Source: a virus
Lineage: Duplodnaviria > Heunggongvirae > Uroviricota > Caudoviricetes
Virus record (IMG/VR): IMGVR_UViG_2713896900_000010
Direction: 5' to 3' (one strand)
DNA: 16,377 bases
The position numbers were made by a program, and so were the translations under genes. The notes below the pieces were generated by a model. That model searched no databases. It had not been told where the DNA came from and saw only the letters and a program-made list of their open reading frames with translations. How positions within the stretch are numbered: position 1 is the stretch's first letter; each line of letters begins with the position of its first letter. Shown here piece after piece: positions 1 to 15,597 of the stretch.

Positions 1-348
1 CTACTGCATACGGCGCTGTTGCTGCTTTTCTGTATGCACGCGTTTTACTATCTTATAAATCCATTGCAGCGTCAGATTATATTTCTTCGCTAATTCGGCG
101 TAGTTGCGCCCATCGCACTCGCTATAGATTTGATAGTCCCGCTCCGAGGCTCGCCTGGCGATTCCTTTTGGAAAATAAATGCTTTGTCCGCCCCAGTTTC
201 GCATCATGCGATCGGCAATGGCATAGCCAACATTTTCCGCAGATGAGCTATCCAGATTGATGCTCTCAATCAGAACTTGCGAAGCATGAAACGCCAAATC
301 GTTAATGATCTCCGGTGTCCGGGTCATCTCTTTTGCTTTTTGTATCAT
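1..348 (-). CDS. Mor/C-family transcriptional activator (115 aa)
   Basis: Complete minus-strand ORF (ATG at 348-346, stop at 3-1) with GGAG 7 nt upstream of the start. The C-terminal half (GGQSIYFPKG...DGRNYAELAKKYNLTLQWIYKIVKR) follows the conserved HTH region pattern I recall for phage Mu Mor/C activators (GGxxxYIPxG...NGRNxxEL...Y...T...YK). Recalled similarity, not a database hit. Confidence 0.75.
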   Translation of the reverse strand: MIQKAKEMTRTPEIINDLAFHASQVLIESINLDSSSAENVGYAIADRMMRNWGGQSIYFPKGIARRASERDYQIYSECDGRNYAELAKKYNLTLQWIYKIVKRVHTEKQQQRRMQ

Positions 349-903
349 TTTTCATCTCCATATATCTTGCACCCTGTATGGACTCTGATGTGAGTTACAC
401 CACGGATATCCGCTAAGTTGGTGCAATTACTGCTTTTCAATACATTCAACACGCAAATAAATAATCACAATGTATATGCAATAAAAATTAAAACGAATTA
501 TAAATTCACAAAACAAATATATTATTTTCATTACATGTCTTATCAACAGGAGTGCCATTTTACACGATACTGTATACATATACAGTGCTATTTATCATTT
601 TTATCGCCTACTTTTCAAAAAGCTCGTTTCCCTCACAGTCGAGGATTTTTTTAAACAAACTTTAAAAATCAAATAAGTAACGACCATGATTGCAATATGT
701 CATCCCCTTCATTACACATAACGCAGGATTTATCTAACTGGCAGCCATTTTATCCTTAGTTCTCTATTTTGAGTTGGGAGATTAATTGGCGAACATGTTA
801 ATTCGAAGAGAACACATTTTTTAAAGTTATTTATTAAAGCTTTTTTCATTCTTCAGCAAAGAGATAAGCAGACACTGGTATCTCACTTATCAGGAGATAT
901 CGT
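349..903. promoter_or_regulatory. AT-rich divergent intergenic control region between the activator gene and the lysis/tail genes
   Basis: 555 bp at roughly 30% GC versus about 50-55% in flanking genes; many A/T tracts. The only ORF here (418-654) has no RBS and a low-complexity product. Contains the LexA-box-like palindrome at 568-587. Confidence 0.5.
568..587. promoter_or_regulatory. LexA (SOS) box-like operator
   Basis: TACTGTATACATATACAGTG matches the enterobacterial SOS box consensus TACTGT(AT)4ACAGTA at 18 of 20 positions, including both CTGT and ACAG half-sites with exact 8 bp spacing; the arms ACTGTATA/TATACAGT are a perfect inverted repeat. Which promoter it controls cannot be resolved from sequence alone. 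Confidence 0.6.
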
Positions 904-1191
904 ATGAAAAAAATCACTTTTCCCCGTCTTTCCGGTTGGCTGGCTGCAGCCATTGCTCTGATTGCATTGATCGGCTGGACATCTTCAGCACAAATTCCGG
1001 TCGTCATTTATAAACTAAGCCTGGTTTCACTTTCCGCAGTGCTGGGATACTGGCTCGATCGTAGTTTGTTCCCCTGGGCACGGCCTGACTTTTTTTGCCC
1101 CAGGAAGGAACCGCGTTGCTACGCAGCGGCAATGATTCGTCGCGCCATCATCGTGGCTGCAGTCTGCCTTTCCGTCGCGTTAGGGCTATAG
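904..1191 (+). CDS. Putative holin / lysis membrane protein (95 aa, about 3 predicted transmembrane segments)
   Basis: AGGAG 7 nt upstream of ATG; MKK start; three hydrophobic stretches (WLAAAIALIALIGW, IPVVIYKLSLVSLSAVLGYWL, AIIVAAVCLSVALGL); its stop overlaps the start of the downstream endolysin (TAGTGATG). Function inferred from size, topology and position. Confidence 0.5.
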   Translation: MKKITFPRLSGWLAAAIALIALIGWTSSAQIPVVIYKLSLVSLSAVLGYWLDRSLFPWARPDFFCPRKEPRCYAAAMIRRAIIVAAVCLSVALGL

Positions 1192-1193
1192 TG

Positions 1194-1799
1194 ATGTGGC
1201 TAAAATATATCGCGCCTATGATTATTTTCGTTCTTTTCCCGCTTAACGCGTCTGAACCACCACAAGCCTCTCTGGCATGGAGAAATGAATTGATTCGTAC
1301 CGCCCGAGAAGTCTGGGGACTGAACGCTCCGGTGGCTGACTTTGCCGGGCAATTACACCAGGAGTCCGCCTGGCAGCCAATGGTACGTTCCCCCGTTGGC
1401 GCACAAGGTATGGCGCAATTTATGCCTGCCACAGCGACATGGATAAGCCAACTGTATCCACAGCTACATGAAAACAAACCGTATAACCCAACCTGGGCAA
1501 TCCGGGCGTTGGTACAGTACGACCAGCATTTATGGAACAACATCTCTGCAAAAAATGATTGTCAACGTATGGCGTTTACTCTAAGCGCCTATAACGGTGG
1601 TCAGGGTTGGATTAACCGGGATAAAAAACTGGCGACAACAAAAGGGTTAAATGCCGCCATCTGGTTTGGTCATGTTGAGCAAGTCAACGCCGGGCGCAGC
1701 GCCGCAAACTGGCGAGAAAATCGTCACTATCCGAAGATGATTCTCTATCAACACGCCGCCCGCTACTTACTCTGGGGACAGGCAAGCTGTCTTCACTAA
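1194..1799 (+). CDS. Endolysin, soluble lytic transglycosylase (SLT domain) with N-terminal signal peptide or SAR domain (201 aa)
   Basis: Contains hallmark SLT motifs (catalytic-Glu context LHQESAWQP; GMAQFMPATA; AYNGG). The ORF track extends it to 1095, but the ATG at 1194 is coupled to the upstream stop, has AGGG upstream, and is followed by a hydrophobic N-terminus (MWLKYIAPMIIFVLFPLNA|SEPP). Confidence 0.8.
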   Translation: MWLKYIAPMIIFVLFPLNASEPPQASLAWRNELIRTAREVWGLNAPVADFAGQLHQESAWQPMVRSPVGAQGMAQFMPATATWISQLYPQLHENKPYNPTWAIRALVQYDQHLWNNISAKNDCQRMAFTLSAYNGGQGWINRDKKLATTKGLNAAIWFGHVEQVNAGRSAANWRENRHYPKMILYQHAARYLLWGQASCLH

Positions 1800-1811
1800 T
1801 CAGAGGGGCCG

Positions 1812-2126
1812 ATGAAACTCAGTATCGATTTTTGGGAAGTGATCTCCTTTATGCTTTCATTCGTTGGATTAATGTTTGCTGCCGGAAAATTGCTGTTAGC
1901 GCAAATTGAAAAAAGACTTAATGAGCGTTTTGAGTCCCTGGAAAATGCCCGCAGGGAATCAGAAACAAGCTGGTCGAAACTGGAAAGAGAATTTCTCGAA
2001 TTTCGTGCCGAACTTCCACTGTATTATGTCCGCAGAGAGGATTATCTTCGTGGACAAGCAGTATTAGAAGCAAAGCTGGATGCCTTATATAGCAAAATAG
2101 AGTTATTACAACGTGGCAGTTATTAA
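1812..2126 (+). CDS. Lysis-cassette accessory protein; N-terminal transmembrane anchor plus coiled coil (i-spanin-like or releasin-like), 104 aa
   Basis: GAGGGG RBS 4-9 nt upstream; one N-terminal hydrophobic helix (VISFMLSFVGLMFAAGKLLL) followed by a charged heptad-like region; position immediately after the endolysin. Function is an inference. Confidence 0.45.
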   Translation: MKLSIDFWEVISFMLSFVGLMFAAGKLLLAQIEKRLNERFESLENARRESETSWSKLEREFLEFRAELPLYYVRREDYLRGQAVLEAKLDALYSKIELLQRGSY

Positions 2127-2130
2127 ATAC

Positions 2131-2165
2131 ATCCCCACCTTTACGTAAGTGTGGGGATTTTTTAT
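2131..2165 (+). terminator. Rho-independent terminator after the lysis cassette
   Basis: Inverted repeat ATCCCCAC (2131-2138) / GTGGGGAT (2151-2158) followed by a run of six T (2158-2163), 5 nt after the stop codon of the 1812-2126 gene. Confidence 0.6.
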
Positions 2166-2272
2166 AACCATTCAATTTTTTCTCTAAATCACATTAAAAG
2201 ATTCTTCACTCTCACTGCTTCAGAATACATTTCAACGATAACGAAGTGAGCGGTAATTAAGGTACACCTCAT

Positions 2273-2728
2273 ATGAAAATTTTATCTGTAATGAATTATG
2301 TCGTGGTCAGATTACGTGATCGGCATCCTGAAATGGACATATTCATTTCATCTACGGATGCCCAAAAATATATTCCACAGACACAACAGATTACGGTGAT
2401 TATTAATTATAGCGGTTCTGTCTTCACCACGCCCGAAAGTAGTGATGCCATTGTACAACAGCAAATACTCCGCTTAACCGCCACCGTTATTGTTGGCAAA
2501 AATTGTGATGCGTTAAACGCACTTGATCACATACGCAGCGCATTGGGAGGCCTTCAGCCTCCTGATTGCGATCATCTTATTTGGCTTGAAAAAGAAATTA
2601 ATACGGGTGAGAGCGACGGTTTCTGCCGCTACATCCTGGAAATGGCGACCAGCTCGCTGTTTATCGCTGAACAGGACAGCACGGATCTTCCCCTGCTTAC
2701 TGAAGTTAATTACGAGGAAACTGAATGA
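2273..2728 (+). CDS. Hypothetical protein at the head-proximal end of the tail operon (151 aa); possible tail completion / sheath terminator-type protein
   Basis: ATG with AAGG upstream; first gene after the terminator; stop overlaps the next start (ATGA); occupies the position held by small tail-completion genes upstream of the sheath in Mu-type clusters. No motif recognised. Confidence 0.45.
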   Translation: MKILSVMNYVVVRLRDRHPEMDIFISSTDAQKYIPQTQQITVIINYSGSVFTTPESSDAIVQQQILRLTATVIVGKNCDALNALDHIRSALGGLQPPDCDHLIWLEKEINTGESDGFCRYILEMATSSLFIAEQDSTDLPLLTEVNYEETE

Positions 2729-2922
2729 AATATATCTACAACGGTCCGGCAAGCGGCGTCACCCTTGCCGACGGTCAAGAAATCTTATTATGGCCGAACA
2801 GTGAAATTGATCTGCCAGAAGACAATGAGTGGGTTATGACCATGATTGCCCGAAATCACTTGATTCTCATCATTCCCCAGGAAGAACAAAATAACGTAGA
2901 GGAAATTGTACATGGCAGCTAA
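2725..2922 (+). CDS. Small hypothetical protein (65 aa), translationally coupled between the upstream ORF and the sheath gene
   Basis: GAGGAAA RBS, ATGA overlap with the upstream stop, and its own stop overlaps the sheath start region. No recognisable motif. Confidence 0.4.
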   Translation: MKYIYNGPASGVTLADGQEILLWPNSEIDLPEDNEWVMTMIARNHLILIIPQEEQNNVEEIVHGS

Positions 2923-4333
2923 TTATCTGCACGGTGTAGAAACCATTGAAATTGAAACCGGCCCGCGTCCGGTAAAAGCAGTAAAATCTGCTGTAATCGC
3001 TTTAATCGGTACCGCTCCCTGTGGCCCGGTAAACCAACCGACGCTGTGCCTTTCTGAAAGTGACGCGGCACAGTTTGGATCGACTCAGGCTAACTTTACG
3101 ATCCCGCAGGCGCTGAAGGCGATTTATGATCACGGTGCCGGTACAGTGGTGGTAATTAATGTGCTGGATCCAGTAAAACATGGACTACACATTACCAATG
3201 AAACCATTACGTTCAATAGTGACGATAAAGCTAAATTAACTCATCCGGGGGTAAGTTCGGTAACGCTAAGAGCAAGTATCAGTTCCACTACATACAAAAA
3301 TACATCATACAGCGTTAATGCCGCTGACGGCGTTATTACCCGTACAGGAACTGAAATTGCGGCAGGAGCAAAGGTTTACGCGACTTATACCTATGTTGAC
3401 CCTACAAAGGTCACCGCAGCCGATATTATCGGGGCCGTTAATACCGCAGGCGATCGCACGGGGATGAGGCTCCTTCAGGACACTTATAACTTGTATGGTT
3501 TCTACGCCAAAATTCTGCTGGCACCCGTTTTTTGTACGCAAAAATCAGTGACTACCGAGCTGATTGCACAAGCGGAAAAACTCGGTGCGATTACCTACAT
3601 TGATGCCCCAATTGGGACTACATTCCAGCAGGTATTGGCTGGACGCGGTTCGCAAGGCGCAATCAACTTCAATACCAGCTCTGATCGTGCACGTTTATGC
3701 TACCCACACGTCAAAGTTTACGATGGCATCACTAACCAGGAAATTCTTGAACCTCTCTCTTCGCGCGCTGCCGGGCTACGTGCCAAAGTAGACCTCGAAA
3801 AAGGTTTCTGGTGGAGCAACTCAAACCAGGAAATTCAGGGTATTACCGGTATCGAACGTTCGCTTTCCGCAATGATTGATGATCCACAAAGCGAAGTGAA
3901 TCAGCTCAACGAAAACGGTATTACCACTATTTTCAATAGTTATGGTTCTGGTCTGCGCCTGTGGGGCAACCGCACAGCGGCATGGCCAACCGTGACTCAT
4001 ATGCGTAACTTTGAAAACGTTCGCCGGACAGGCGATGTAATTAATGAGTCAATCCGTTATTTCAGTCAACAGTATATTGATATGCCGATCAATCAGGCAC
4101 TGATTGACGCGCTGACCGAATCGGTAAATACCTGGGGCCGAAAACTGATTGCCGACGGCGCACTGCTTGGCTTTGAGTGCTGGTACGATCCGGCGCGAAA
4201 TTCACCGGCTGAACTCAGTGCCGGGCATTTATTGCTCAGCTATAAATTTACCCCACCGCCGCCGCTGGAACGTCTGACGTTTGAAACTGAAATTACCTCT
4301 GAATATTTAGTCTCTCTGGAGAGCAATCGCTAA
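2912..4333 (+). CDS. Contractile tail sheath protein (Mu L / P2 FI-like), about 473 aa
   Basis: Size and position immediately upstream of the tube gene; overall sequence character typical of myovirus sheath proteins. Preferred start is the ATG at 2912 (GAGGAAA 7 nt upstream) rather than the TTG at 2906 reported by the ORF track. Confidence 0.85.
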   Translation: MAANYLHGVETIEIETGPRPVKAVKSAVIALIGTAPCGPVNQPTLCLSESDAAQFGSTQANFTIPQALKAIYDHGAGTVVVINVLDPVKHGLHITNETITFNSDDKAKLTHPGVSSVTLRASISSTTYKNTSYSVNAADGVITRTGTEIAAGAKVYATYTYVDPTKVTAADIIGAVNTAGDRTGMRLLQDTYNLYGFYAKILLAPVFCTQKSVTTELIAQAEKLGAITYIDAPIGTTFQQVLAGRGSQGAINFNTSSDRARLCYPHVKVYDGITNQEILEPLSSRAAGLRAKVDLEKGFWWSNSNQEIQGITGIERSLSAMIDDPQSEVNQLNENGITTIFNSYGSGLRLWGNRTAAWPTVTHMRNFENVRRTGDVINESIRYFSQQYIDMPINQALIDALTESVNTWGRKLIADGALLGFECWYDPARNSPAELSAGHLLLSYKFTPPPPLERLTFETEITSEYLVSLESNR

Positions 4334-4857
4334 TGGCTGGAAAAATTCAAATTAACCGTATTACCAACGCCAATATTTATCTCGATGGTAATAATCTTTT
4401 AGGCCGTGCAACAGAAATTAAATTGCCAGATGTCAGTTTAATTATGCAGGAACATAAAGCACTGGGCATGGTGGGTAAAATAGAACTCCCGGCTGGTTTC
4501 GATAAACTGGAGGGGGAAATTAAATGGAACTCCTTTTACCAGGACGTAATGCGTAAAACGGCAAACCCGTGGCAGGCTGTAGCATTACAGTGTCGCTCCA
4601 GTATCGATTGTTATAACTCTCAGGGGAAAGCGAATCAATTAGCGTTAGTCACACATTTAACCGTGATGTTTAAAAAAAATCCACTGGGCACATTTAAACA
4701 GAATGAAAACCCGGAATTCAGCAGCGCCTTTGGCTGCACTTATATTAAACAAGTAGTCGATGGTGAAACGCTGCTTGAACTGGATTATATGGCGAATATT
4801 TTCCGCGTTAACGGCGTGGATCAATTAAGTACCTATCGCAATAACATCGGTGGCTAA
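4333..4857 (+). CDS. Tail tube protein (Mu M / P2 FII-like), 174 aa
   Basis: TAATG stop/start overlap with the sheath gene; size and position canonical for a tube protein following the sheath. Confidence 0.8.
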   Translation: MAGKIQINRITNANIYLDGNNLLGRATEIKLPDVSLIMQEHKALGMVGKIELPAGFDKLEGEIKWNSFYQDVMRKTANPWQAVALQCRSSIDCYNSQGKANQLALVTHLTVMFKKNPLGTFKQNENPEFSSAFGCTYIKQVVDGETLLELDYMANIFRVNGVDQLSTYRNNIGG

Positions 4858-4861
4858 GTTA

Positions 4862-4881
4862 TTCGGGGCTACGGCCCCGAA
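4862..4881 (+). other. Intercistronic stem-loop between the tube and chaperone genes
   Basis: Perfect 8 bp GC-rich stem TTCGGGGC / GCCCCGAA with a 4 nt loop (TACG), 5 nt after the tube stop codon; no following U-tract, so more likely an mRNA-stability or attenuation element than a full terminator. Confidence 0.5.
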
Positions 4882-4907
4882 CTCCGAAAAATAAATAAGG
4901 ATACAAA

Positions 4908-5225
4908 ATGAAAGAGCATTATATCTTACAGTTTCCCTTTACGTCGGCAGCAGGAAATAATATCGACACGCTACAATTACGTCGCCTGAAAGTCAAAGAT
5001 ATGCGTAATGCACGCCGGGTCAGCGAAAAGCCGGAAGAATGGGATGAACCGCTAATGGCAGCGATGACCGGGCTGGTACCAGAAGATTTAGCTGAAATGG
5101 ATTTGCTGGATTACCAGGCGTTGCAGAAACGATTTCAATCCATGCTTACCGTGGCTACAGAATCCCCCCTTGCTATGGCAGGCAATGGCGCTACTGGCGA
5201 GATGGTTTCGCTTTCCACCCAGTGA
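4908..5225 (+). CDS. Tail assembly chaperone, P2 gpE-like (105 aa)
   Basis: AAGGAT RBS; size and position between tube and tape measure; residue pattern resembles P2 gpE as I recall it. A possible frameshift extension is described in the findings. Confidence 0.6.
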   Translation: MKEHYILQFPFTSAAGNNIDTLQLRRLKVKDMRNARRVSEKPEEWDEPLMAAMTGLVPEDLAEMDLLDYQALQKRFQSMLTVATESPLAMAGNGATGEMVSLSTQ

Positions 5226-5300
5226 GATTGACTCGCTCACGATAGATGACTTTAGTCACTGGCTGGATGAAGCCAGCGCTCAAATAAAAATCGAATATGA

Positions 5301-5323
5301 CTCGCAGACCTGATGTCTGCGAG
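5301..5323 (+). other. Stem-loop in the chaperone to tape-measure spacer
   Basis: Perfect 9 bp inverted repeat CTCGCAGAC / GTCTGCGAG with a 5 nt loop (CTGAT), followed by TTCTTC; the loop contains the stop codon of the +1-frame extension ORF. Confidence 0.45.
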
Positions 5324-5413
5324 TTCTTCAAAGCTCGCCAGGTTTATTTCTTCCCAGCCCATTTTTCAGAAAACTAACCAGCGGGCCATCACCAATCTAT
5401 AAGAGAAACAATT

Positions 5414-7789
5414 TTGGCCAACGATATTATTACCCAGCTTCAGACGCGTAATGAGACGTTGACGCAGGCAATAGCCCGTTACGGCTCACTCAACGCCAGA
5501 ACATTGTTAGCACTCTCTTCTCAGCAAGCGGCAGTAATCAAACTAACGCAGCAACTTGCCGATTCCGCTCTCCGCCTGGAGGAAAATAGCCGAAACCGCG
5601 CTGATCTGATGGAGAAAACCCAAACATTTGCCGGGCAATTTAGCAAAGTATTCAATGTTGAAATCCTTGACTGGAAGTTGCCGTATGAGTTTCAGGACAA
5701 CATGGTCAATTTGGCGACCAAAGGTGGGATGAATGATACAACCCGCGAGACACTCAGCCTTAATCTGCGCGACTGGAGCATGGATTTTAACCAGCAGCAG
5801 ACCACCTTACAGAACGCAGCCCAGGTGCTAATCGAAGGTAATTTGTCGTCGATGCAGGATCTCAACCGTTATATGCCGGAGATCGCCAAAGCGGCCACCA
5901 CCACGCGCGAAAGTGCTGAAACATGGGCGAATGCCGCGCTCGCGACTCATGATCGACTGAATATTGCGCCAGAAAATTTCCACGCCGCGCAAAACATGAT
6001 GTACGGCATTAGCAAAAACGGTGGGCCTACCGTTGCCGGGCAAACACAGTGGATAGACAAATTTGCAGTTAAAACTGGCGCACAGGGTTTAGAAGGTATG
6101 GCTGAACTGACCGCCACAATGCAGATCGCAATGAAAAATGGTGCCAGCGCCAGTGTGGCGGCGGAGAATTTCGACCACTTTCTGCAAACCATCTTTTCGA
6201 AAAAAACCGATAACTGGTTCGTCAGCCAGGGCGTCGATCTGCAAGGCTCTCTGCTTGAACATCAGCAAAACGGCATGGGTGTTAGCGAAGCCATGATTCA
6301 TATCGTGCAAACGCAACTTGAGAAGATGAATCCGGCGATCCTCGACACCTTCAAACGCACCATGCAAATTGAAGATTTATCTGCTCGCAGCAACGCACTG
6401 CAATCGATAGTGACGCAATTTAATCTGGGCGAAATGTTCGGCGATGCGCAAACAGTGGAATTCCTGGCACCTGCGCTGGCGAATATGGAAGAGTATCGCC
6501 AGTTAAAAGCCTCCGCCATGCAAGACAGCGGTAAGAATCTGATTGACAACGATTTTTCTGTGCAGATGGCCTCGCCCATTGAACAAACTAAAACGTTACA
6601 ACTGGCGTTAAATGATTTATGGCTCAGCATTGGCTTGCAATTAATGCCGCTGATTGGCGAGTTGGCGCAAAGCCTTACTCCGGTGATTCGCCAGTTCAGC
6701 GCCTGGCTACGTGAACACCCGGCGCTGGTGCAAAACATTGCGAAAATCGTCGGAGCGATTTGGCTGTTTAACGGCGCACTGAATGTTTTAAAGCTGGGCG
6801 CGAACGTCATCGCCTCGCCGTTTATTCGTCTGGTCGATATCTTCCTGAAAGTCAGGGCAAGTCTGACGCTCACAGGCGCGGCAAGTAAGATGCTATCAGC
6901 GGTTAAGTCATTATATAACGGCGCAAAATGGCTAACGCAACTGCTTGGCCGTGGCCTGATTGGCGCATTGAAACTGGCAGGTCAGACCGTCTTCTGGTTG
7001 GGTAGAGTTTTATTGATGAATCCCATTGGTCTGGTCATCACCGCGATTGCGGGCGCTGCTTATCTGATCTATCGCCACTGGGAACCTATCTCCAGATTCT
7101 TTTCCGCCATCTGGCAACGTATCACCACGGCCTTTGACGGCGGCATTGCAGGGATTTGCCGGTTAATTCTCGACTGGTCGCCGCTGGAGTTGTTCTACAG
7201 CGCCTTTTCCAGTGTGATGAATTGGTTTGGTGTCGAGATGCCTGCAAGTTTTAGCGAGTTCGGCAGCAATCTTCTGGGCAGTCTGGTTGACGGCATAATG
7301 AATGCTTTCCCCGCTCTGAAAGGCATTATTGATCAGGTCAAAAACGCCTTACCGGACTGGCTAAAAACCACGATGGGTATTAGCACAGAAGGATCGGCTA
7401 CGGCTGTTACAAGCACGACGAATACCGCATCAATCTCCCCCACAACCGTTGTTCCAGGCGTTGCCGGAGCGATTTTAACGCCTCCTGTGGGCAAACAACT
7501 CGCGCCATCCAGTAAAACGACAACGTCGCCATCGACACCAGCGGCAAAAAATACAGCCGCCAAACCCGCATCGGCCTCTTTACCTGGTAAATCTGTAACC
7601 AAACCGGCGACGCTCCCCTCCCGTTCCTCTGGAAAAGTTCAGGTGAATTTTTCGCCACAAATTACCGTGCAGAGTAACGGACAAAACACCACTAAAGACA
7701 TTCAGAACGTGTTGACGATAAGTAAACGCGAACTGGAAAGAATGATTAACGACGTAATGGCGCAACAACAGCGCCGGGGGTATGCCTGA
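5414..7789 (+). CDS. Tail tape measure protein (791 aa)
   Basis: Largest gene of the cluster, directly after the chaperone; coiled-coil-rich N-terminal half, hydrophobic segments in the middle/C-terminal part, Ser/Thr/Pro/Ala-rich tract near the C-terminus. The first in-frame start after the upstream stop is a TTG at 5414 with a weak AAGAG motif upstream. Confidence 0.85.
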   Translation: MANDIITQLQTRNETLTQAIARYGSLNARTLLALSSQQAAVIKLTQQLADSALRLEENSRNRADLMEKTQTFAGQFSKVFNVEILDWKLPYEFQDNMVNLATKGGMNDTTRETLSLNLRDWSMDFNQQQTTLQNAAQVLIEGNLSSMQDLNRYMPEIAKAATTTRESAETWANAALATHDRLNIAPENFHAAQNMMYGISKNGGPTVAGQTQWIDKFAVKTGAQGLEGMAELTATMQIAMKNGASASVAAENFDHFLQTIFSKKTDNWFVSQGVDLQGSLLEHQQNGMGVSEAMIHIVQTQLEKMNPAILDTFKRTMQIEDLSARSNALQSIVTQFNLGEMFGDAQTVEFLAPALANMEEYRQLKASAMQDSGKNLIDNDFSVQMASPIEQTKTLQLALNDLWLSIGLQLMPLIGELAQSLTPVIRQFSAWLREHPALVQNIAKIVGAIWLFNGALNVLKLGANVIASPFIRLVDIFLKVRASLTLTGAASKMLSAVKSLYNGAKWLTQLLGRGLIGALKLAGQTVFWLGRVLLMNPIGLVITAIAGAAYLIYRHWEPISRFFSAIWQRITTAFDGGIAGICRLILDWSPLELFYSAFSSVMNWFGVEMPASFSEFGSNLLGSLVDGIMNAFPALKGIIDQVKNALPDWLKTTMGISTEGSATAVTSTTNTASISPTTVVPGVAGAILTPPVGKQLAPSSKTTTSPSTPAAKNTAAKPASASLPGKSVTKPATLPSRSSGKVQVNFSPQITVQSNGQNTTKDIQNVLTISKRELERMINDVMAQQQRRGYA

Positions 7790-8742: not shown

Positions 8743-8951
8743 TGCGATACCTTGAACATATCACCACCGACGGCGAACGCTGGGATAATCTGGCATGGCA
8801 TTACTACGGCGATGCGCTGGCTTATGAACGCATCATCGCCGCCAATCCACATGTCGCCATTTACCCGGTACTGCCTTCCGGTATTCAACTCATTATTCCG
8901 GTCATTTCCGTCAACAAAACCTTATCGGAGATACCACCATGGCTGAGATAA
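8742..8951 (+). CDS. Tail protein X-like (LysM-like, P2 gpX family), 69 aa
   Basis: ATG at 8742 overlapping the upstream stop, AGGAG 6 nt upstream; the motif LEHITTDGERWDNLAWHYYGD...IIAANPHV resembles the gpX LysM-like signature; sits just before the gpD-like gene as in P2/Mu-type clusters. Confidence 0.65.
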   Translation: MRYLEHITTDGERWDNLAWHYYGDALAYERIIAANPHVAIYPVLPSGIQLIIPVISVNKTLSEIPPWLR

Positions 8952-9979: not shown

Positions 9980-9988
9980 GGAGGCACT

Positions 9989-10648
9989 ATGAAGGGAGTA
10001 ACCCGGCAAACGGGGATTATCAGCGATATTGACGAAACCAGCGTTCGGGTGCGAGTCACACTGCCAGAGTGCGACAATCTGAAGAGTAACTGGCTTGCGG
10101 TACTTCAACGTAATTCCCAGGACAATAAAGACTACTGGCTACCGGATATGGGTGAGCAGGTGGAAGTTCTGCTGGACGACAACGGCGAAGATGGCGTGGT
10201 ACTTGGGGCCGTTTATTCTACGGTTGACACCGCGCCTGTGGCCTCGCGAGATAAACGTTACGTCCAGTTTTCTGATGGCGCAGCGTTTGAATATGACCGC
10301 AGCACACACCAGCTTACGATTAACGGCGGTATTGAGAAAATCGTGATTGAGGTTATTGACCGTACTAACCTGACATCACCCAACGTTGAGGTTAAAGCCC
10401 AACAAGTCACCGTGACTTCCGATACCGTCGATATTAAAGCGGCGACAGTGACGGTAGATGCGCCCATGAGCACCTTTACTGGTAACGTCACGGTAATGAA
10501 AAAACTCACCTGGCTGGGTGGCATGGCAGGAAGTGGAGGCATCGGTAACGCCGCCACGATAACTGGCAATGTCAACGTGATTGGTAACGTTCAGGCCAGC
10601 GGCACATTGCAGGATAGCGGTGGTAACTCAAATCACCATTCACACTAG
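9989..10648 (+). CDS. Baseplate central spike, P2 gpV / Mu gp45-like (219 aa)
   Basis: Strong AAGGAGG RBS; N-terminal OB-fold-like region followed by repetitive beta-strand-rich Val/Thr segment (VTVTSDTVDIKAATVTVDAP...) and a C-terminal His cluster (NHHSH) typical of spike apexes. Confidence 0.8.
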   Translation: MKGVTRQTGIISDIDETSVRVRVTLPECDNLKSNWLAVLQRNSQDNKDYWLPDMGEQVEVLLDDNGEDGVVLGAVYSTVDTAPVASRDKRYVQFSDGAAFEYDRSTHQLTINGGIEKIVIEVIDRTNLTSPNVEVKAQQVTVTSDTVDIKAATVTVDAPMSTFTGNVTVMKKLTWLGGMAGSGGIGNAATITGNVNVIGNVQASGTLQDSGGNSNHHSH

Positions 10649-10653
10649 CTTTT

Positions 10654-10684
10654 AACCCGCCTGATGGCGGGTTTTCTCTTTTTA
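10654..10684 (+). terminator. Rho-independent terminator inside the baseplate module
   Basis: Stem AACCCGCC (10654-10661) / GGCGGGTT (10666-10673), loop TGAT, followed by TTCTCTTTTT; 6 nt after the spike gene stop. Confidence 0.7.
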
Positions 10685-10746
10685 ATCAATCAGTTTTCTA
10701 AATCGCTTTAATATCCCCACTGTCCGTTCAGGGCGAAAATAAGCAC

Positions 10747-11106
10747 ATGAACACAAAAACACGCCCCTCAACGCTGCACTGGCAACCCGCCTTGCAGCGG
10801 CCTGAAGAATACGTCTGCGGACTGGATGATATTCACCAGGCAATACACATCATTCTGCGCACGCCGCGCGGCAGTGATCCCCACAGACCGCTGTTTGGCA
10901 GCAACTTGTGGCACTACATCGATTACCCCATCGAGCGGGCAATCCCGCATGTGGTACGGGAGTCGATGGAAGCCATCCGCCAGTGGGAACCGCGATGTCG
11001 GTTGCTGAAGGTAGCACCGATAATCGACGGTGAACATCTGACGTTACGTGTGCAATGGCGCGCCGCTGACGGCGTAATCAACTCAACGGAGGTGTTATGG
11101 CGATAG
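10747..11106 (+). CDS. Baseplate wedge protein, gpW / gp25-like (119 aa)
   Basis: Size and position before the J-like gene; product overlaps the downstream start by 10 nt. Confidence 0.75.
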   Translation: MNTKTRPSTLHWQPALQRPEEYVCGLDDIHQAIHIILRTPRGSDPHRPLFGSNLWHYIDYPIERAIPHVVRESMEAIRQWEPRCRLLKVAPIIDGEHLTLRVQWRAADGVINSTEVLWR

Positions 11107-12212
11107 CCGAACCCAATTTTATTGACCGCGATCCTGCGCAAATTACCAGCGAGATGATTGCGCAATACGAAGATGCCAGCGGTAAAAAACTCTATCCGGC
11201 ACAGGCCGAACGGTTACTCATCGACCTGTTTGCCTATCGTGAAAACCTTGTGCGCATCGCCATTCAGGAAGCGGCGAAACAAAACCTGGTCGCGTATTCC
11301 CGCGCACCAATGTTGGATTATTTAGGGGAGCTGGTGGGTGTTCACCGTTTACCTGCGCAACCGGCAAAAACGACGTTGCAGTTTTCGGTCGTCAGTGCGT
11401 ATACCAGCAATATCCTGATTCCCCAGGGGACGCGGGCCAGTGCCTCTGACAGCGTGATGTTCGCCACCGATGAAGATGTTCTGCTTCCGGCCAGGAGTTT
11501 GCATATCGCCGTTCCGGCCACCAGCCTCGCAGCAGGTGAACAGGGCAATGGCTGGCAGCCTGCACAGATTAGCGCCCTTGTTGACAGGATCGGTTATTAC
11601 GATATCAACGTGACTAATCTGACTCCCACAACCGGCGGTTGTGGTGAAGAGAACGATGATGCACTACGCCAGCGTATACAACTGGCGCCAGAAAGCTTCA
11701 GTAATGCCGGCAGCTATGGCGCATATCGCTTTCATACACTTTCGGTTAGCCAGTCAATTATTGACGTTGCAGTACTGGGGCCAGATGAAGGGTTGCCAGA
11801 AGGCTGCGTCGAGCTCTACCCGCTAACCCTGAATGGTCTGCCGGGAACCGAGCTACTCGCGCAAATTGAACAAGAAGTGAGTAAAGAGAAAAAACGTCCG
11901 CTGACTGACAAAGTAAGTGCGAAATGTGCTCTTAGGGTGCCGTATGAAATTCGTGCGCAGCTAACGCTGTTTACCACCGCCGATCAGGAGACAACACTGG
12001 CTGCGGCGCGTAAAGCGATTAGCCTCTGGACGCAACAGCGGCAGAAACATCTGGGGCAGGACATTGTGCCAAACCAGATAATCAAAGTGTTACAAGTCGA
12101 TGGTGTCTATGACGTTGTGCTGAACATGCCTACAAAACGTATTTTGCAGGCGCATGAATGGGCGGAATGCACTGTAATAGACGTCACGATTGCCGGAGTC
12201 AGCGATGGATAA
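11097..12212 (+). CDS. Baseplate J-like protein (P2 gpJ / Mu gp47-like), 371 aa
   Basis: GGAGGTG RBS; size and position canonical for the baseplate J family; overlaps the downstream start. Confidence 0.8.
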   Translation: MAIAEPNFIDRDPAQITSEMIAQYEDASGKKLYPAQAERLLIDLFAYRENLVRIAIQEAAKQNLVAYSRAPMLDYLGELVGVHRLPAQPAKTTLQFSVVSAYTSNILIPQGTRASASDSVMFATDEDVLLPARSLHIAVPATSLAAGEQGNGWQPAQISALVDRIGYYDINVTNLTPTTGGCGEENDDALRQRIQLAPESFSNAGSYGAYRFHTLSVSQSIIDVAVLGPDEGLPEGCVELYPLTLNGLPGTELLAQIEQEVSKEKKRPLTDKVSAKCALRVPYEIRAQLTLFTTADQETTLAAARKAISLWTQQRQKHLGQDIVPNQIIKVLQVDGVYDVVLNMPTKRILQAHEWAECTVIDVTIAGVSDG

Positions 12213-12837
12213 ATTGCTGCCACCGCCGCCGCTTGCCAGCGATGAGCGTTTTTCAACTCTGGCAAATATCGCCGCCGAACGTTTTGCGCAACTCGATCTG
12301 ACGGCATTAATGATATACCTGGTCGACCTGGTTGATGCTTCGGCATTACCTGCCCTTGCAGAACAATTTCACGTTCAGGGGCTGGAAGGTTGGTTATTTA
12401 CTACTGATGAACAAGAGAAGCGTGAGTTAATTAAGCGAGCCATTGAGTTACATAAATATAAAGGAACAGTTTGGGCGGTACGGCGAGTACTGGAAATACT
12501 CTCATTGCCTGGAACTATTGCCGAATGGTTTGAATATGGCGGGAAAGCTTATTTTTTTAAGGTTGATATAGAACTGGTGGATAAAGGCATGGATGAAAAC
12601 CTTTTCAATGAGTTAGTTGAACTCATTCATGAATATAAAAACACACGTTCAAAACTGGAAGCATTAATCGTCTGGATCATTAACCAAAGTGCTATCCCTG
12701 TTATTAGCTGTGCGCTTTATGGGGGTGAACTGACGACGCTTTTACCTTTCCAGATACGGGAAGTACAACAAAACACAACAATCTTTTACGGAACAGGGCA
12801 ATGGAGCCTTGAAATTACATCTATTTACCCGGAGTAA
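12190..12837 (+). CDS. Baseplate/tail protein I-like (P2 gpI / Mu gp48-like), 215 aa
   Basis: Follows the J-like gene with overlapping coupling and precedes the tail fiber gene, the conserved J-I-H order. Confidence 0.7.
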   Translation: MPESAMDKLLPPPPLASDERFSTLANIAAERFAQLDLTALMIYLVDLVDASALPALAEQFHVQGLEGWLFTTDEQEKRELIKRAIELHKYKGTVWAVRRVLEILSLPGTIAEWFEYGGKAYFFKVDIELVDKGMDENLFNELVELIHEYKNTRSKLEALIVWIINQSAIPVISCALYGGELTTLLPFQIREVQQNTTIFYGTGQWSLEITSIYPE

Positions 12838-12839
12838 TT

Positions 12840-14498
12840 ATGGATAATGAGTTTTATACCCTCCTGACCGACAGGGGGATGGCAAAAATTGCCAGTGCTC
12901 TTGCGGATAAAAAACAACTACATCTGCAAAAGATGGCCGTTGGAGACGGCGGTGGGCAATATTACGAACCCTCGGCGAGTCAAGCAAAATTACGTCATGA
13001 AGTATGGCGTGGTGAGTTAAATACATTAACAGTTGCACCCAGTAATCCTAACTGGTTAATTGCGGAACTTGTACTGCCCGAAAATATCGGCGGCTGGTAT
13101 GTACGTGAAGTCGGCGTTTTTGATACTGACGGCGAACTTATTGCTATCGGTAAATTCCCAGAATCGTATAAACCGCTATTACCCGGCGGCAGCGGTAAGC
13201 AAGTTTGCATTCGTCTCATTATGGAAGTTTCCAACACGACTGCGGTAACACTCACCGTTGATCCCAGTATTGTACTGGCAACACGTGATTATGTTGATTC
13301 ACAACTGGATAAACATGCACGTTCGACTAATCATCCTGATGCTACGTTAATGCAAAAAGGCTTTACGCAGTTGAGTAACGCCACTGACAGTGATGACGAA
13401 ACTAAAGCGGCTACGTCAAAAGCGGTAAAAGCGGCGATGATTGAGGCACGAAACCATCGTCATACCTGGAGTCAAATTACTGATATTCCAGATGGTACGC
13501 TGACTCAAAAAGGAATTGTGAAGCTAAATAACGCGACCAATAGCACCAGCACGACGGAGGCAGCGACACCGAGCGCGGTTAAGGCGGCGTATGACCTGGC
13601 AAATGGTAAAGCTGCAGGCAGTCATACGCATCCCTGGGGGCAGATTACGGGTATTCAGGATGGCACCCTGACGCAAAAAGGGATTGTGAAGCTGAATAAT
13701 GCGACGGACAGCAACAGCACGACGGAGGCAGCCACGCCGAGTGCGGTTAAGGCGGCAATGGATAAGGCTAATGCTGCAGCTCCGGCTAATCATACTCACA
13801 CTAGTTTTTATACTACAAATGGAACATTTACAGTTCCTGATGGCGTAACTACATTATTTGTGGAAGTTATGGGCGGCGGCGGTGGTGGTGCCGGAGGAGC
13901 ACAATCATCATATTATGAAGCATGTGGTGGCAATACAGGTGAATTGCTCGTTGGTTACTTAAACGTGGAACCAAGCCAGCATTTTTCAGTAAAGGTTGGG
14001 GCTGGAGGTAATGGAGGTCCATTTTGGAATAATCCACCTGTTTCACAAGTAAAGTATTCATCGGATAACACAGAGAAAACACAAAAAAGCTTTGATGGTG
14101 GTGACTCTTCATTTTCTAATATGATTGCCAAAGGAGGTCATGGGGGATATAACATTTATCACTTTAACACTACGCAGCCTTGTATAAAATTCATTGACCA
14201 TCCAAATACTTATGCACCTGGCGCAATACGGTTATATGCAGAATTTTATCCTGGCAAGAATGGTGAAAATTCCATATATGGAAAAGGAGGGAGCGCTGGC
14301 ACTGTTATTACAGAATATCTGGATAATGGTGGAAGTAAGGCAATAATGACACATCCGACACCAGCAATAGGCTATGGTTCTGGAGGAGCGGGAGGATCTT
14401 ATTTGCCTCCTTTTGAATATGACAATAATGAATTAACAAACTTAGGCAATACTAGCGGAACAAAAGGTGCCTCTGGTTTCGTAAAAATATCATGGTAA
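12840..14498 (+). CDS. Tail fiber protein (552 aa) with conserved N-terminal domain, tandem shaft repeats and Gly-rich low-GC C-terminal receptor-binding region
   Basis: N-terminus (MDNEFYTLLTDRGMAKIASALA...WLIAELVLPENIGGWYVREVGVFDTDGELIAIGKFP) is the conserved baseplate-attachment domain of Mu S / P2 H / lambda Stf-type fibers; three tandem repeats with the motif TLTQKGIVKLNNAT...AATPSAVKAA; C-terminal ~230 aa rich in Gly motifs. Confidence 0.85.
   Translation: MDNEFYTLLTDRGMAKIASALADKKQLHLQKMAVGDGGGQYYEPSASQAKLRHEVWRGELNTLTVAPSNPNWLIAELVLPENIGGWYVREVGVFDTDGELIAIGKFPESYKPLLPGGSGKQVCIRLIMEVSNTTAVTLTVDPSIVLATRDYVDSQLDKHARSTNHPDATLMQKGFTQLSNATDSDDETKAATSKAVKAAMIEARNHRHTWSQITDIPDGTLTQKGIVKLNNATNSTSTTEAATPSAVKAAYDLANGKAAGSHTHPWGQITGIQDGTLTQKGIVKLNNATDSNSTTEAATPSAVKAAMDKANAAAPANHTHTSFYTTNGTFTVPDGVTTLFVEVMGGGGGGAGGAQSSYYEACGGNTGELLVGYLNVEPSQHFSVKVGAGGNGGPFWNNPPVSQVKYSSDNTEKTQKSFDGGDSSFSNMIAKGGHGGYNIYHFNTTQPCIKFIDHPNTYAPGAIRLYAEFYPGKNGENSIYGKGGSAGTVITEYLDNGGSKAIMTHPTPAIGYGSGGAGGSYLPPFEYDNNELTNLGNTSGTKGASGFVKISW
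13314..13790 (+). repeat. Three tandem ~55 aa / ~165 bp repeats within the tail fiber shaft
   Basis: Protein repeats ending at HRHTW / HTHPW / HTHT; the DNA of units 2 and 3 (about 13501-13590 versus 13669-13758) is roughly 85% identical. Confidence 0.6.
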
Positions 14499-14504
14499 TT
14501 AAAA

Positions 14505-15119
14505 ATGACAAAATATGCATGTTTTGATCCTGAAACATTTGTTGTTTTGGACTGGTTCGATACAGAACGTTACAACTATCCCAAAGTAGAACATTTAGTT
14601 GAAATAACTGATCAGCAATGGCAGATATATGCAAGAGATAATATTCCAACTTGGATTAACTGTGAAGATTTATCCTTCATTTCTATGCCACCACCAGATA
14701 AATTTCACAAACTGAAAAAAGGAGAATGGATAGTTGATACAGATTCAATACTTAAATTTATTTCAGAAATAAAAGAAGATATAATAAGAAGAGTAAAATC
14801 CAAACGAGATTACATCACAACCGATTACATCATCCTCAACGGCCATCACTTCCACAGTGATACAAATAGCCGAATCCAACAACTCTCACTCACAAAAATG
14901 GGAGCCGAAAAACAAATTCCGCCAGGTTTAATGTGGAAAACTAAAAATAACGGTCTGATTGAGTTAACCAATGAAATCGCCGCCCAGTTTGAATCCGTCA
15001 CCATGGCTCACGATATGCGCCTGTTTGCCAACGCCCAGCGCCATATTACGGCGGTGGAAGCTCTGGGCGATATTCAGGCGGTGCTCGACTACGACTACTC
15101 CACAGGCTGGCAACCATGA
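14505..15119 (+). CDS. Tail fiber assembly protein (Tfa/U-like chaperone), 204 aa
   Basis: Immediately downstream of the fiber gene; C-terminal half (higher GC) resembles the conserved Tfa domain ending ...DYDYSTGWQP; N-terminal half is low-GC like the fiber C-terminus. Confidence 0.7.
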   Translation: MTKYACFDPETFVVLDWFDTERYNYPKVEHLVEITDQQWQIYARDNIPTWINCEDLSFISMPPPDKFHKLKKGEWIVDTDSILKFISEIKEDIIRRVKSKRDYITTDYIILNGHHFHSDTNSRIQQLSLTKMGAEKQIPPGLMWKTKNNGLIELTNEIAAQFESVTMAHDMRLFANAQRHITAVEALGDIQAVLDYDYSTGWQP

Positions 15120-15571
15120 GTAAAACCACTGTCTGGCTCGCTTGCTATAAAGGCAGAACAGAGCACCGAGGTATTGCGCAACTAGCTGACTGGCTTACCC
15201 GTAAAATCACACGCGGCAGTTATTCCCACTGCGAGTTAGCAGTGGTACATGGTGAAAAAAATTACCTTTGCTACTCTGCATCACTGCGCGATCGCGGTGT
15301 ACGCGGAAAGATAATGCCACTACCGTCAGATAAGTGGGATATGCTGCCGCTCCAGGCTAGCTTTCAGGATGTGGAAGCTTTTTTCCATAAACATAATGGC
15401 AAAAAATACGACTGGCGCGGAGCCTTAGGAATTATCACTGGCAATAAAGAACAGCGCAATCGTCTGTTTTGCAGTGAATTTTGCGCCGAGTTTCTGCAGT
15501 TAAAAGAGAGTTGGCGCTATTCCCCAAACCATTTGTATGCTTTAGTCAGCAGTTGGCAATATCAGCCGTAA
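15116..15571 (+). CDS. Hypothetical Cys/His-rich protein (151 aa), translationally coupled to tfa; possibly a permuted papain-fold (NlpC/P60-like, YaeF/YiiX-type) enzyme
   Basis: ATGA overlap with the tfa stop; the motifs SHCELAVVHG and LFCSEFCAEF put a His upstream of a C-terminal Cys as in permuted NlpC/P60 amidases. Family assignment is tentative and from recall. Confidence 0.45.
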   Translation: MSKTTVWLACYKGRTEHRGIAQLADWLTRKITRGSYSHCELAVVHGEKNYLCYSASLRDRGVRGKIMPLPSDKWDMLPLQASFQDVEAFFHKHNGKKYDWRGALGIITGNKEQRNRLFCSEFCAEFLQLKESWRYSPNHLYALVSSWQYQP

Positions 15572-15576
15572 AATAA

Positions 15577-15597
15577 CGCCGGGCTTTACGCCCGGCG
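15577..15597. terminator. Bidirectional terminator-like hairpin between convergent genes
   Basis: Stem CGCCGGGC (15577-15584) / GCCCGGCG (15590-15597), loop TTTAC; the minus-strand side is followed by a U-rich tract (TTATTTTAC); the stop codon of the minus-strand gene lies in the loop. Confidence 0.55.

Follow-up and report, generated by a model that had tools for sequence, protein, structure and literature searches.

A head-less BcepMu-type block of lysis and contractile tail genes beside lysC in enterobacteria, a probable SOS-inducible R-type tailocin

Gene content of the block

The present work concerns a 16,377-nucleotide stretch of DNA recorded as a tailed virus (Caudoviricetes; IMG/VR record IMGVR_UViG_2713896900_000010), the whole of which is referred to here as the window, and the block of about 15.5 kb from Escherichia albertii that fills most of it. 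This block, called here the lysC-locus element after the chromosomal gene beside which it lies, retains from a Mu-like phage of the BcepMu type only the switch, the lysis genes and the whole contractile tail. Open reading frames (ORFs) on the plus strand follow one another almost without gaps over positions 904-15571, with a single divergent gene at 1-348; all 20 reading frames in the window are intact, and the lengths of all the tail reading frames are those of their orthologues. Nearly all of the ORFs could be named by profile searches (Pfam), which found each of the gene classes listed in a preliminary description of the window, namely a Mor/C-type activator, a lysis cassette and a full contractile tail, where that description had placed them. 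No tRNA genes were found in the window. The features are as follows (aa, amino acids).

1-348, minus strand: mor, Mor/C-family late transcription activator, 115 aa (PF08765, E = 8e-38; PHROG 532 'late transcriptional activator')
557-586, both strands: two overlapping predicted sigma-70-like promoters sharing the LexA box (promoter scan, and our own reading for the minus strand)
568-587, no strand assigned: LexA (SOS) box TACTGTATACATATACAGTG, 18/20 matches to the E. coli consensus
650-672, orientation ambiguous: late-promoter-like dyad TAAACAAACTTTA (pattern match; conserved in Escherichia, Salmonella, Phytobacter and Citrobacter)
815-876, plus strand: predicted late-promoter block P_lys, with TTTAAAGTTATTTA at 820-833 and a -10-like GACACT at 871-876 (nearly invariant in 7 sequences)
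904-1191, plus strand: holin, 95 aa, of the two- or three-transmembrane type (three hydrophobic segments; PF13272, E = 7e-26; PHROG 1528 'holin'; homologue of BcepMu gp21)
1194-1799, plus strand: endolysin, SLT lytic transglycosylase, 201 aa, with an N-terminal hydrophobic segment (PF01464)
1812-2126, plus strand: gp25-like membrane/coiled-coil protein, 104 aa (homologue of BcepMu gp25 and PhiKM g25; PHROG 462)
2131-2164, plus strand: intrinsic terminator T1, closing the lysis operon (-15.5 kcal/mol, z = -3.7, then U6)
2176-2228, plus strand: predicted late-promoter block P_tail1, with TCTAAATCACATTA at 2183-2196 and a -10-like GAATAC at 2223-2228 (conserved across genera)
2273-2728, plus strand: Gp37, tail terminator protein, 151 aa (PF09646; PDB 2GJV, E = 6e-53)
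2725-2922, plus strand: 65-aa protein (homologue of BcepMu gp38 by tblastn; PHROG 895)
2912-4333, plus strand: tail sheath, 473 aa from its ATG (PF04984, PF17482)
4333-4857, plus strand: tail tube (PF04985, E = 4e-56; 100% amino-acid identity to the E. coli copy)
4908-5313, plus strand: gpE-like tail assembly chaperone (4908-5225; PF10109) with an alternative-frame extension to 5313
5414-7789, plus strand: tape measure protein, 791 aa (PF10145)
7789-8742, plus strand: gpU-like tail protein with a coiled-coil C-terminal extension (PF06995; PHROG 788)
8742-8951, plus strand: gpX-like tail protein (PF05489)
8939-9979, plus strand: gpD-like baseplate hub (PF05954; 97% identical to the E. coli copy, 84% to the Salmonella copy)
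9989-10648, plus strand: gpV-like spike (PF04717)
10654-10684, plus strand: intrinsic terminator T2 (-15.3 kcal/mol, z = -4.8; also found in a separate scan)
10690-10742, plus strand: predicted late-promoter block P_tail2, with TCTAAATCGCTTTA at 10697-10710 (conserved in the alignment; motif match)
10747-11106, plus strand: gpW/gp25-like baseplate wedge (PF04965)
11097-12212, plus strand: gpJ baseplate protein (PF04865, E = 3e-62)
12205-12837, plus strand: gpI baseplate/fibre-attachment protein (PF09684)
12840-14498, plus strand: tail fibre, 552 aa, with a conserved collar N-terminus, fibre repeats and a glycine-rich variable C-terminus (PF12571, PF03406, PF21722)
14505-15119, plus strand: fibre chaperone/tail-fibre assembly protein, DUF4376 (PF14301; PHROGs 1807 and 2837 'tail')
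15116-15571, plus strand: 151-aa protein with a predicted permuted-papain (YiiX/C92-like) cysteine peptidase fold (H38, C119; AF2 model)
15577-15597, no strand assigned: GC-rich hairpin between the convergent genes for the 151-aa protein and RlaP, at the right end of the element
15586-16377, minus strand: RlaP nucleotidyltransferase, the last gene of the window, outside the element

Phage ancestry and the missing genes

The intact phages whose sheaths are nearest to that of the element belong to Bcepmuvirus: PhiKM of E. coli (75% identical), Klebsiella KP12 (73%), and BcepMu (gp39) and phiE255 (both 70%). In BcepMu, gp01 on the minus strand encodes Mor, gp02-gp20 form an early region with the genes for MuB, the transposase and the repressor, and there follow the holin (gp21), the SLT protein (gp22), Rz/Rz1 (gp23/24), gp25 and gp26, then the genes from the small terminase subunit TerS to the adaptor (gp27-gp36), and finally gp37, gp38 and the sheath (gp39) through the fibre (gp52). 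Every BcepMu protein, together with a representative PhiKM set covering head, packaging, transposition, lysis and regulatory functions, was searched against the window by six-frame tblastn, and the matches were limited to mor, the holin, SLT, gp25, gp37, gp38 and the sheath through gpI. From mor to gpI, all genes of the window have collinear homologues in both BcepMu and PhiKM, which bears out the Mu-like lineage put forward in the preliminary description and narrows it to a BcepMu-like one.

The head genes, which in BcepMu and PhiKM sit between the lysis genes and gp37, are missing. TerS, TerL, the portal, MuF, MuG, the protease, the capsid protein and the adaptor had no match in the window even at E = 0.01, nor had GemA, MuB, the transposase, the repressor, Rz/Rz1 or gp26, and the profile search for head-family domains that had been proposed as a check found none, either in Pfam or in six-frame searches. 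The interval 2126-2912, in which the preliminary description saw no room for head genes, holds only a terminator, a promoter block, Gp37 and the 65-aa gene. In its predicted gene content the element thus equals BcepMu minus gp02-20, Rz/Rz1 and gp26-36. Its late-promoter blocks, its chaperone extension and its sheath match those of the BcepMu-like phages (BcepMu, PhiKM and a Pectobacterium carotovorum prophage), but these phages carry genes for transposase, MuB, repressor, GemA, Rz/Rz1, terminase, portal, MuF, MuG, protease, capsid and adaptor, and the element carries none of them. The transposase, MuB, repressor and head genes by which an intact Mu-like prophage is recognized were likewise not found in the flanks described below.

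The structure of Gp37 is represented by PDB 2GJV, the Salmonella orthologue STM4215, for which six chains were deposited and the biological assembly is a homohexameric ring, and which has been listed beside lambda gpU among the tail terminator proteins that crystallise as hexamers (bioRxiv 10.1101/2024.10.16.618446). The label 'portal' that PHROGs gives to the family was rejected, because a length of 151 aa is incompatible with a portal and 2GJV is a tail terminator. Since Gp37 is the tail terminator, the first gene past the lysis cassette is already a tail part.

The lysis and regulatory genes follow the same pattern of homology. The mor product is 48% identical to BcepMu gp01, with a ratio of nonsynonymous to synonymous divergence (dN/dS) of 0.05 against E. 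coli, and the endolysin is 52-64% identical to BcepMu gp22 and the PhiKM transglycosylase. An accessory lysis gene is present at 1812-2126, as had been noted earlier, although it is a homologue of BcepMu gp25 and not a spanin; it is strongly constrained (dN/dS = 0.03-0.06). A spanin lies between SLT and gp25 in BcepMu, PhiKM and carotovoricin (a tailocin of Pectobacterium, compared below), and no Rz/Rz1 match was found in the window by six-frame tblastn with the BcepMu and PhiKM proteins. The ORF embedded at 1906-2067 was considered as an Rz1-type lipoprotein and rejected, as it has no lipobox. The gp25-like protein may take over outer-membrane disruption in the lysC-locus element. The hairpin of T1 is kept in 6 of 7 aligned sequences, the Dryocola sequence being without it. 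The tail genes do begin directly after this strong terminator, at 2131-2164, but the single terminator of the preliminary description gives way to two, since a second terminator and promoter split the tail genes at 10654-10742.

Chromosomal position and distribution

Contigs 99.99-100% identical to the window were used to stand in for its source in the flank check in E. albertii: one matches at 100% over 11,262 bases, and another, CP025676, the chromosome of E. albertii SP140150 (PMC5820351), at 99.99% over 10,348 bases. To the left of mor in the window-identical contigs are lysC, 48 bp away, and then pgi, yjbT, psiE and malGFE; to the right of the gene for the 151-aa protein is a small variable island followed by yjbD, rluF and the sorbose operon. 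No head, transposase, integrase or other phage genes were found within 10 kb on either side in these contigs.

The window starts inside the element, mor ending at base 1, so that it could in principle be no more than the end of an entire Mu-like prophage that continues past the edge with head and transposition genes. This is refuted, to the point of having next to no probability, by the flanks, which are lysC and pgi on the left and yjbD, rluF and the sorbose operon on the right, the same in E. coli, Salmonella and Citrobacter. The related alternative in the preliminary description, that the head module lies beyond the left edge, falls with it, pgi-lysC being directly left of mor.

The same block occurs at the lysC locus in at least eight enterobacterial genera. 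It is carried over at least 80% of its length by 191 of 5,426 complete E. coli genomes, at 91% DNA identity and always on the chromosome between lysC and yjbD. The Salmonella copy (78% DNA identity; locus tags STM4198-STM4219 in strain LT2) likewise runs from lysC to yjbD, and the order lysC-mor-holin through fibre is also found in Phytobacter massiliensis, two Superficieibacter species, a Dryocola species, Citrobacter freundii and an Enterobacter contig. Contig scans for carriers with gpU as the query returned none, alignment of gpD gave 4 loci, and further carriers came from protein look-ups.

Tail module and fibre cassette

The tail set of an R-type tailocin is complete, comprising the terminator, sheath, tube, chaperone, tape measure, hub, spike, wedge, fibre and fibre chaperone. 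The tail assembly chaperone has an extension, LLARWFRFPPSEID, in the +1 frame; it is conserved throughout the relatives, BcepMu and PhiKM among them. No Afp15-type AAA+ ATPase, toxin cargo, TssB/C, ClpV, membrane complex or secretion genes were found among the Pfam and PHROG matches of any ORF, and the element differs from Afp/PVC-type injection systems and type VI secretion systems (T6SS) in carrying a lysis cassette instead of their hallmark genes.

The fibre and its chaperone are swapped as a cassette among E. albertii strains, the chaperone co-varying with the fibre allele in three allele pairs (552/204, 498/217 and 582/235 aa); identity breaks near 12713 and returns at 14773-14821. In Salmonella the fibre allele STM4200 is largely serovar-restricted and serves as a Typhimurium marker for quantitative polymerase chain reaction, negative in 46/49 other serovars (PMC6201931). 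No relatives of the fibre C-terminus were found in 50,697 phage records except for a weak Salmonella contig, and for this reason no receptor can be guessed.

The 151-aa protein that closes the fibre operon has no Pfam or NCBIfam match. Its 91 homologues, many of which adjoin phage tail genes, include one database entry labelled as a YaeF/YiiX C92 amidase, and His38 and Cys119 are invariant across 36 homologues. The AlphaFold model (pLDDT 86) has a sole significant fold match in the PDB, the Bacillus cereus cysteine peptidase 3KW0 (probability 1.0, TM-score 0.54-0.60), which suggests a fold like that of the C92 cysteine peptidases; the dN/dS of the gene is 0.045-0.06.

A functional tail could also have been kept for some other use, in which it supplies tails to capsid-only satellites or tail-less phages, acts on non-bacterial targets, or is carried as a passenger of a selected lysis cassette. 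We regard such uses as quite improbable. They would account for the retention of Gp37, which provides the surface where heads dock, for a lysis cassette with its own promoter and terminator, and for the conserved C92-like enzyme at the end of the fibre operon. Tailocins keep their terminators too, however, as the Gp37 of carotovoricin illustrates; no toxin payload, Afp-type ATPase or secretion genes appeared in the Pfam, PHROG and PADLOC/NCBIfam searches; the swapping of fibres between strains is the pattern of strain-specific bacterial targeting; and purifying selection on all of the tail genes, documented below, is not expected for a passenger.

Regulatory sequences

The spacer between mor and the holin gene, aligned from seven species, is poorly conserved apart from a few blocks, and the best conserved of these, CATTTTACAC..TACTGTATACATATACAGT, is a near-consensus LexA box. 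The box occurs once in the window, against 0.01 occurrences expected by chance; its CTGT-N8-ACAG core is present in one copy in each of the 7 aligned lysC-locus sequences and in Citrobacter, and it is kept in 8 of the 9 lineages examined, the one without it being an Enterobacter contig whose copy bears an insertion sequence (IS). No LexA box was found in the BcepMu, PhiKM or carotovoricin loci, and this comparison indicates that the lysC-locus element has gained a LexA box that related phages lack.

The two predicted promoters that share the box point in opposite directions. The plus-strand promoter, TTTACA (559-564)-16-TACAGT (581-586), scores 9/12, and its TTTACA is invariant in the spacer alignment; the minus-strand promoter, TGTATA-16-TAAAAT (562-557), by our reading overlaps the box and faces mor. 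The predicted LexA-box promoter may therefore be read as mor-ward or rightward, an ambiguity that sequence alone does not decide. The arrangement preferred here is that LexA controls mor. In the other arrangement, which we consider unlikely, the LexA-controlled promoter would fire rightward, into the lysis operon or an untranslated leader, and mor would be expressed from a LexA-independent promoter, TTGATA-16-TAATAT, at 546-519, some other factor setting the activity or amount of Mor. The score and invariance of the plus-strand promoter favour this arrangement over LexA control of mor, as does a 9/12 minus-strand promoter just left of the box in Escherichia. Yet the 300-350 bp downstream of the rightward promoter contain no conserved ORF, Rfam family or RNA fold, the firing of lysis genes without tails would be wasteful, and it is only within Escherichia that the minus-strand promoter at 546-519 is conserved.

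Three late-promoter blocks are predicted downstream, of which P_tail1 and P_tail2 directly follow the terminators T1 and T2. Blocks homologous to P_lys lie upstream of the holin genes of PhiKM and carotovoricin, blocks near-identical to P_tail1 lie upstream of the protease gene in PhiKM (5036-5060) and of the Gp37 gene in carotovoricin, and blocks homologous to P_tail2 lie upstream of gpW in both. The motif TYTAAAK-N3-WTTA is common to the three blocks and occurs nowhere else in the window, a statistic that is circular in that the pattern was derived from the same three sites, the real support coming from conservation across genera and from the PhiKM and carotovoricin matches. In two of the blocks the dyad precedes the presumed start by about 44 bp, the distance at which Mor and C bind in Mu, and in P_lys it is about 10 bp further away. 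The only exact match to the motif in PhiKM is upstream of the head protease gene, a promoter position which we take to be that of P_I in Mu. On this comparison the Gp37 promoter of the element is predicted to be the protease-gene promoter of the phage, fused to gp37 by the deletion of the head genes.

Before gpW, both here (10736-10749) and in PhiKM (17255-17274), the -10-like element is only 5-6 nt upstream of the ATG, and there is no Shine-Dalgarno sequence at the normal distance. Because the -10 element is so near the ATG and the Shine-Dalgarno sequence is lacking, the gpW operon may start with a leaderless mRNA.

Insertions of 62-70 bp that resemble each other were observed in the spacers of two genera, between mor and the holin gene in Superficieibacter electus (contig L016, about 1480-1545) and upstream of Gp37 in Phytobacter (contig L014, about 3150-3210); they leave the conserved blocks intact and are like repetitive extragenic palindromic elements by appearance only.

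In S. Typhimurium the cluster is not silent, for indole raises expression of its sheath gene, STM4213, about 6-fold (PMC3405474).

Selection and the case for a tailocin

Values of dN/dS and of synonymous divergence (dS) were obtained by the Nei-Gojobori method on codon alignments. Every gene that could be scored had a dN/dS of 0.00-0.22 when E. albertii was compared with E. coli, and of 0.04-0.27 when either of these was compared with Salmonella. In the comparison of E. albertii with Salmonella, dS ranges over 0.6-2.2 in the element and is 1.47 in lysC and 0.79 in pgi. Across the other genera, identity to the E. coli copy is 90-94% for the tube, 92-97% for gpW and 83-86% for gpD. Because its dS is like that of its neighbours and its dN/dS is low, the element has diverged about as much as its hosts while its proteins have been conserved, and these values indicate that it is maintained and largely vertically inherited, and is not a decaying prophage. 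The decayed prophage that the preliminary description offered as an alternative fits poorly with this range of dN/dS and with a position conserved across genera.

One gene in the neighbourhood departs from this pattern: between E. albertii and E. coli G3X16-2, the dS of lysC is 0.87 and that of pgi is 0.28. As pgi is just one gene further away, the difference suggests that lysC travels with the element haplotype through recombination or hitch-hiking.

The reading supported by the gene set, the missing head genes, the core-gene flanks, the selection and the conserved position is the one first put forward in the preliminary description. As far as the genes can tell, the block is a domesticated head-less derivative of a BcepMu-type phage and probably an SOS-inducible R-type tailocin, the particles and their killing activity being expected from the gene content.

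Several observations weigh against this reading. The element is dispensable, as only the 191 E. coli genomes mentioned above carry most of it, and broken copies occur, with an IS1 truncation in CP034212, an uncalled chaperone and fibre in CP045690 and the IS in the Enterobacter copy. Outer-membrane disruption is unexplained because the element has no spanin. No conserved slippery site for the chaperone extension was found, the C6 run at 5164-5169 being specific to E. albertii, and tail chaperone frameshifts usually enter the -1 frame, unlike the +1 extension here. The searchable literature, finally, yielded no study in which the lysC-locus element is called a tailocin or its particles or killing are tested in any species.

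Most of these points would suit an inert prophage remnant, which has lost its head and early genes, has no function, and owes its survival to chance and to its linkage with lysC: the block is missing from most E. coli genomes, some copies are IS-disrupted or gene-depleted, the spanin is gone and the searchable literature holds no functional study. Such a remnant is nevertheless very unlikely. Its 20 frames would not be expected to be intact, nor its dN/dS to be 0.00-0.27 with synonymous sites at or near saturation between genera; the LexA box, the three promoter blocks and the two terminators are conserved across genera; and the deletions have hit exactly those parts that a tailocin can dispense with, while the tail terminator has been kept.

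Comparison with carotovoricin and other tailocins

The head-less Mu-type tailocin architecture is already known from carotovoricin (Ctv), described as a Mu-type tailocin encoded by defective relatives of the Mu-like prophage ECA41. It is reported to lack its own repressor, to be under SOS/LexA control and to lie between tolC_2 and ybiB throughout Pectobacterium (PMC13566846; PMC13195805). In Pectobacterium brasiliense the Ctv order is holin, SLT, Rz, gp25, gp26, a terminator with a protease-type promoter, Gp37, a 65-aa protein, the sheath through gpV, a promoter, and gpW through the fibre. (A Pectobacterium sheath, P0143, was set aside as the Ctv sheath because it belongs to an intact prophage.) Ctv and the lysC-locus element therefore share their parent phage group, core gene order, promoter blocks and head deletion pattern, as well as a position conserved within the genus and a variable fibre locus, and DNA-damage induction is reported for Ctv. 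They differ in locus, Ctv lying at tolC_2-ybiB with tolC_2 (OEP) upstream and the element at lysC-yjbD, and in content, for Ctv keeps Rz and gp26, often has a fibre invertase, and shows neither mor in cis nor any LexA box over 21 kb, whereas the lysC-locus element ends with the C92-like gene.

Seven tail proteins were concatenated (1,858 columns) for a neighbour-joining tree with 200 bootstraps, which places the lysC elements in a clade of their own in 200/200 bootstraps and groups Ctv with the intact phages PhiKM and the P. carotovorum prophage, again in 200/200. Tail-protein identity is 74% between Ctv and the intact phages and 64% between Ctv and the lysC-locus element. By this analysis the two are not orthologous, and with the present sampling, two domestications that converged on the same deletions appear more likely than one. 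A more specific history, for which the evidence is somewhat short of evenly balanced, is that an ancient domestication independent of Ctv became fixed beside lysC before Escherichia, Salmonella, Citrobacter and related genera split, and that LexA was wired directly onto Mor in place of the whole phage early region.

Other known systems are more distant. The R-type pyocins of Pseudomonas aeruginosa, which derive from P2, resemble the element in having a head-less contractile tail, a lysis cassette, a positive regulator and a fixed chromosomal site, and share with it the tail Pfam families FI, FII, E, T, U, X, D, V, W, J, I and H. They too are under DNA-damage control, but their regulation is by PrtR/PrtN and not LexA/Mor, and their gene order is of the P2 type, with baseplate and fibre before the sheath. 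The R-type tailocin of Pseudomonas syringae, reportedly described by Hockett and co-workers in 2015, is said to be an independent co-option of a tailed phage with a Mu-like parent, in another genus and at another locus.

Three further candidates were compared with the element. The 'tailocin specific for ST131' (PMC9205054) was rejected as an intact P2-like prophage elsewhere in the genome, kosakonicin was rejected as P2-ordered, and BceTMilo was set aside, the part of its description that we consulted not presenting it as BcepMu-related. A survey of Salmonella T6SS met 'tailocin/phage loci' and discarded them (PMC12994826).

Cargo genes and neighbouring islands

In Salmonella the O-antigen glucosylation operon gtrABC (STM4204-4206; contig L001, 25229-28064) is inserted between gpV and the gpW promoter. 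Lipopolysaccharide is the usual tailocin receptor, and gtrABC could for that reason bear on self-protection. An intact BcepMu-like prophage of P. carotovorum has a gene with an AbiJ N-terminal domain between gpV and gpW (contig L020, 18123-18977; contig L021, 8165-9019), and since these two different inserts occupy it, the gpV-gpW slot seems to be a preferred cargo site.

The variable island to the right of the element is in the window's strain a pair of genes for RlaP and a slipin of the Band 7 type (contig L010, 10471-12395), and in some other E. albertii strains a GT4 'conflict' glycosyltransferase gene directly right of the element (contigs L011-L013). The RlaP and slipin pair is a separate island: in about 1,430 further E. 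coli genomes the RlaP gene is present and the tail element is not, and in one of these, LY180, the slipin is present and a zeta-toxin gene lies between lysC and RlaP. Searches of PADLOC and NCBIfam with the proteins of unknown function and with RlaP, slipin and GT4 gave no match.

Five short GenBank 'phage' records without annotation (OR845313, OR845696, OR851066, OR850896 and OR850955), which bear the names 'Escherichia phage ECO95 1-6-1' and 'Salmonella phage S.Kent 1-2-1', contain pieces of the Salmonella-type version of the element, with 74-87% identity to the window. Their appearance is that of host DNA carried into particle preparations or of contigs under the wrong label.

Discussion

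If the lysC-locus element is a tailocin, its predicted genes and control sequences suggest how it would work. In undamaged cells LexA, bound to the box at 568-587, would shut the overlapping promoter pair. DNA damage would lead to the self-cleavage of LexA and, if LexA controls mor, to the production of the late activator Mor, which would then turn on P_lys, P_tail1 and P_tail2, these being presumed to depend on Mor. From P_tail1 would come the tail terminator, sheath, tube, chaperone, tape measure, gpU, gpX, hub and spike; from P_tail2 the baseplate wedge, fibre, fibre chaperone and C92-like protein; and from P_lys the holin, lytic transglycosylase and gp25-like membrane protein. Head-less tails should assemble, with a length of about 120 nm as predicted from the 791-aa tape measure. 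The producer would lyse, and the released particles would bind a surface receptor on related strains, chosen by the swappable C-terminus of the fibre, then contract and presumably kill by puncturing the envelope.

What sets the element apart is its hosts, its age, the wiring of LexA to Mor in cis, and its apparent independence from carotovoricin. Carotovoricin and the lysC-locus element, which are probably independent, together show which parts of the phage are indispensable, namely the late activator, the three late promoters, the tail terminator and the genes that follow it, the holin and the endolysin. If the two domestications are indeed separate, the shared deletion pattern, in which a terminator and a protease-type late promoter are followed by gp37 onward, would represent a repeatable route from BcepMu-type phage to tailocin.

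If the tailocin reading is correct, S. Typhimurium LT2 and some E. coli strains harbour a functional tailocin that has escaped study. A functional element would be an SOS-triggered tail weapon conserved in Salmonella, in E. albertii and in about 4% of E. coli; its fibre alleles already track Salmonella serovars, and it could shape the competition between strains in the gut. It would also offer a native chassis for engineered tailocins against Enterobacteriaceae.

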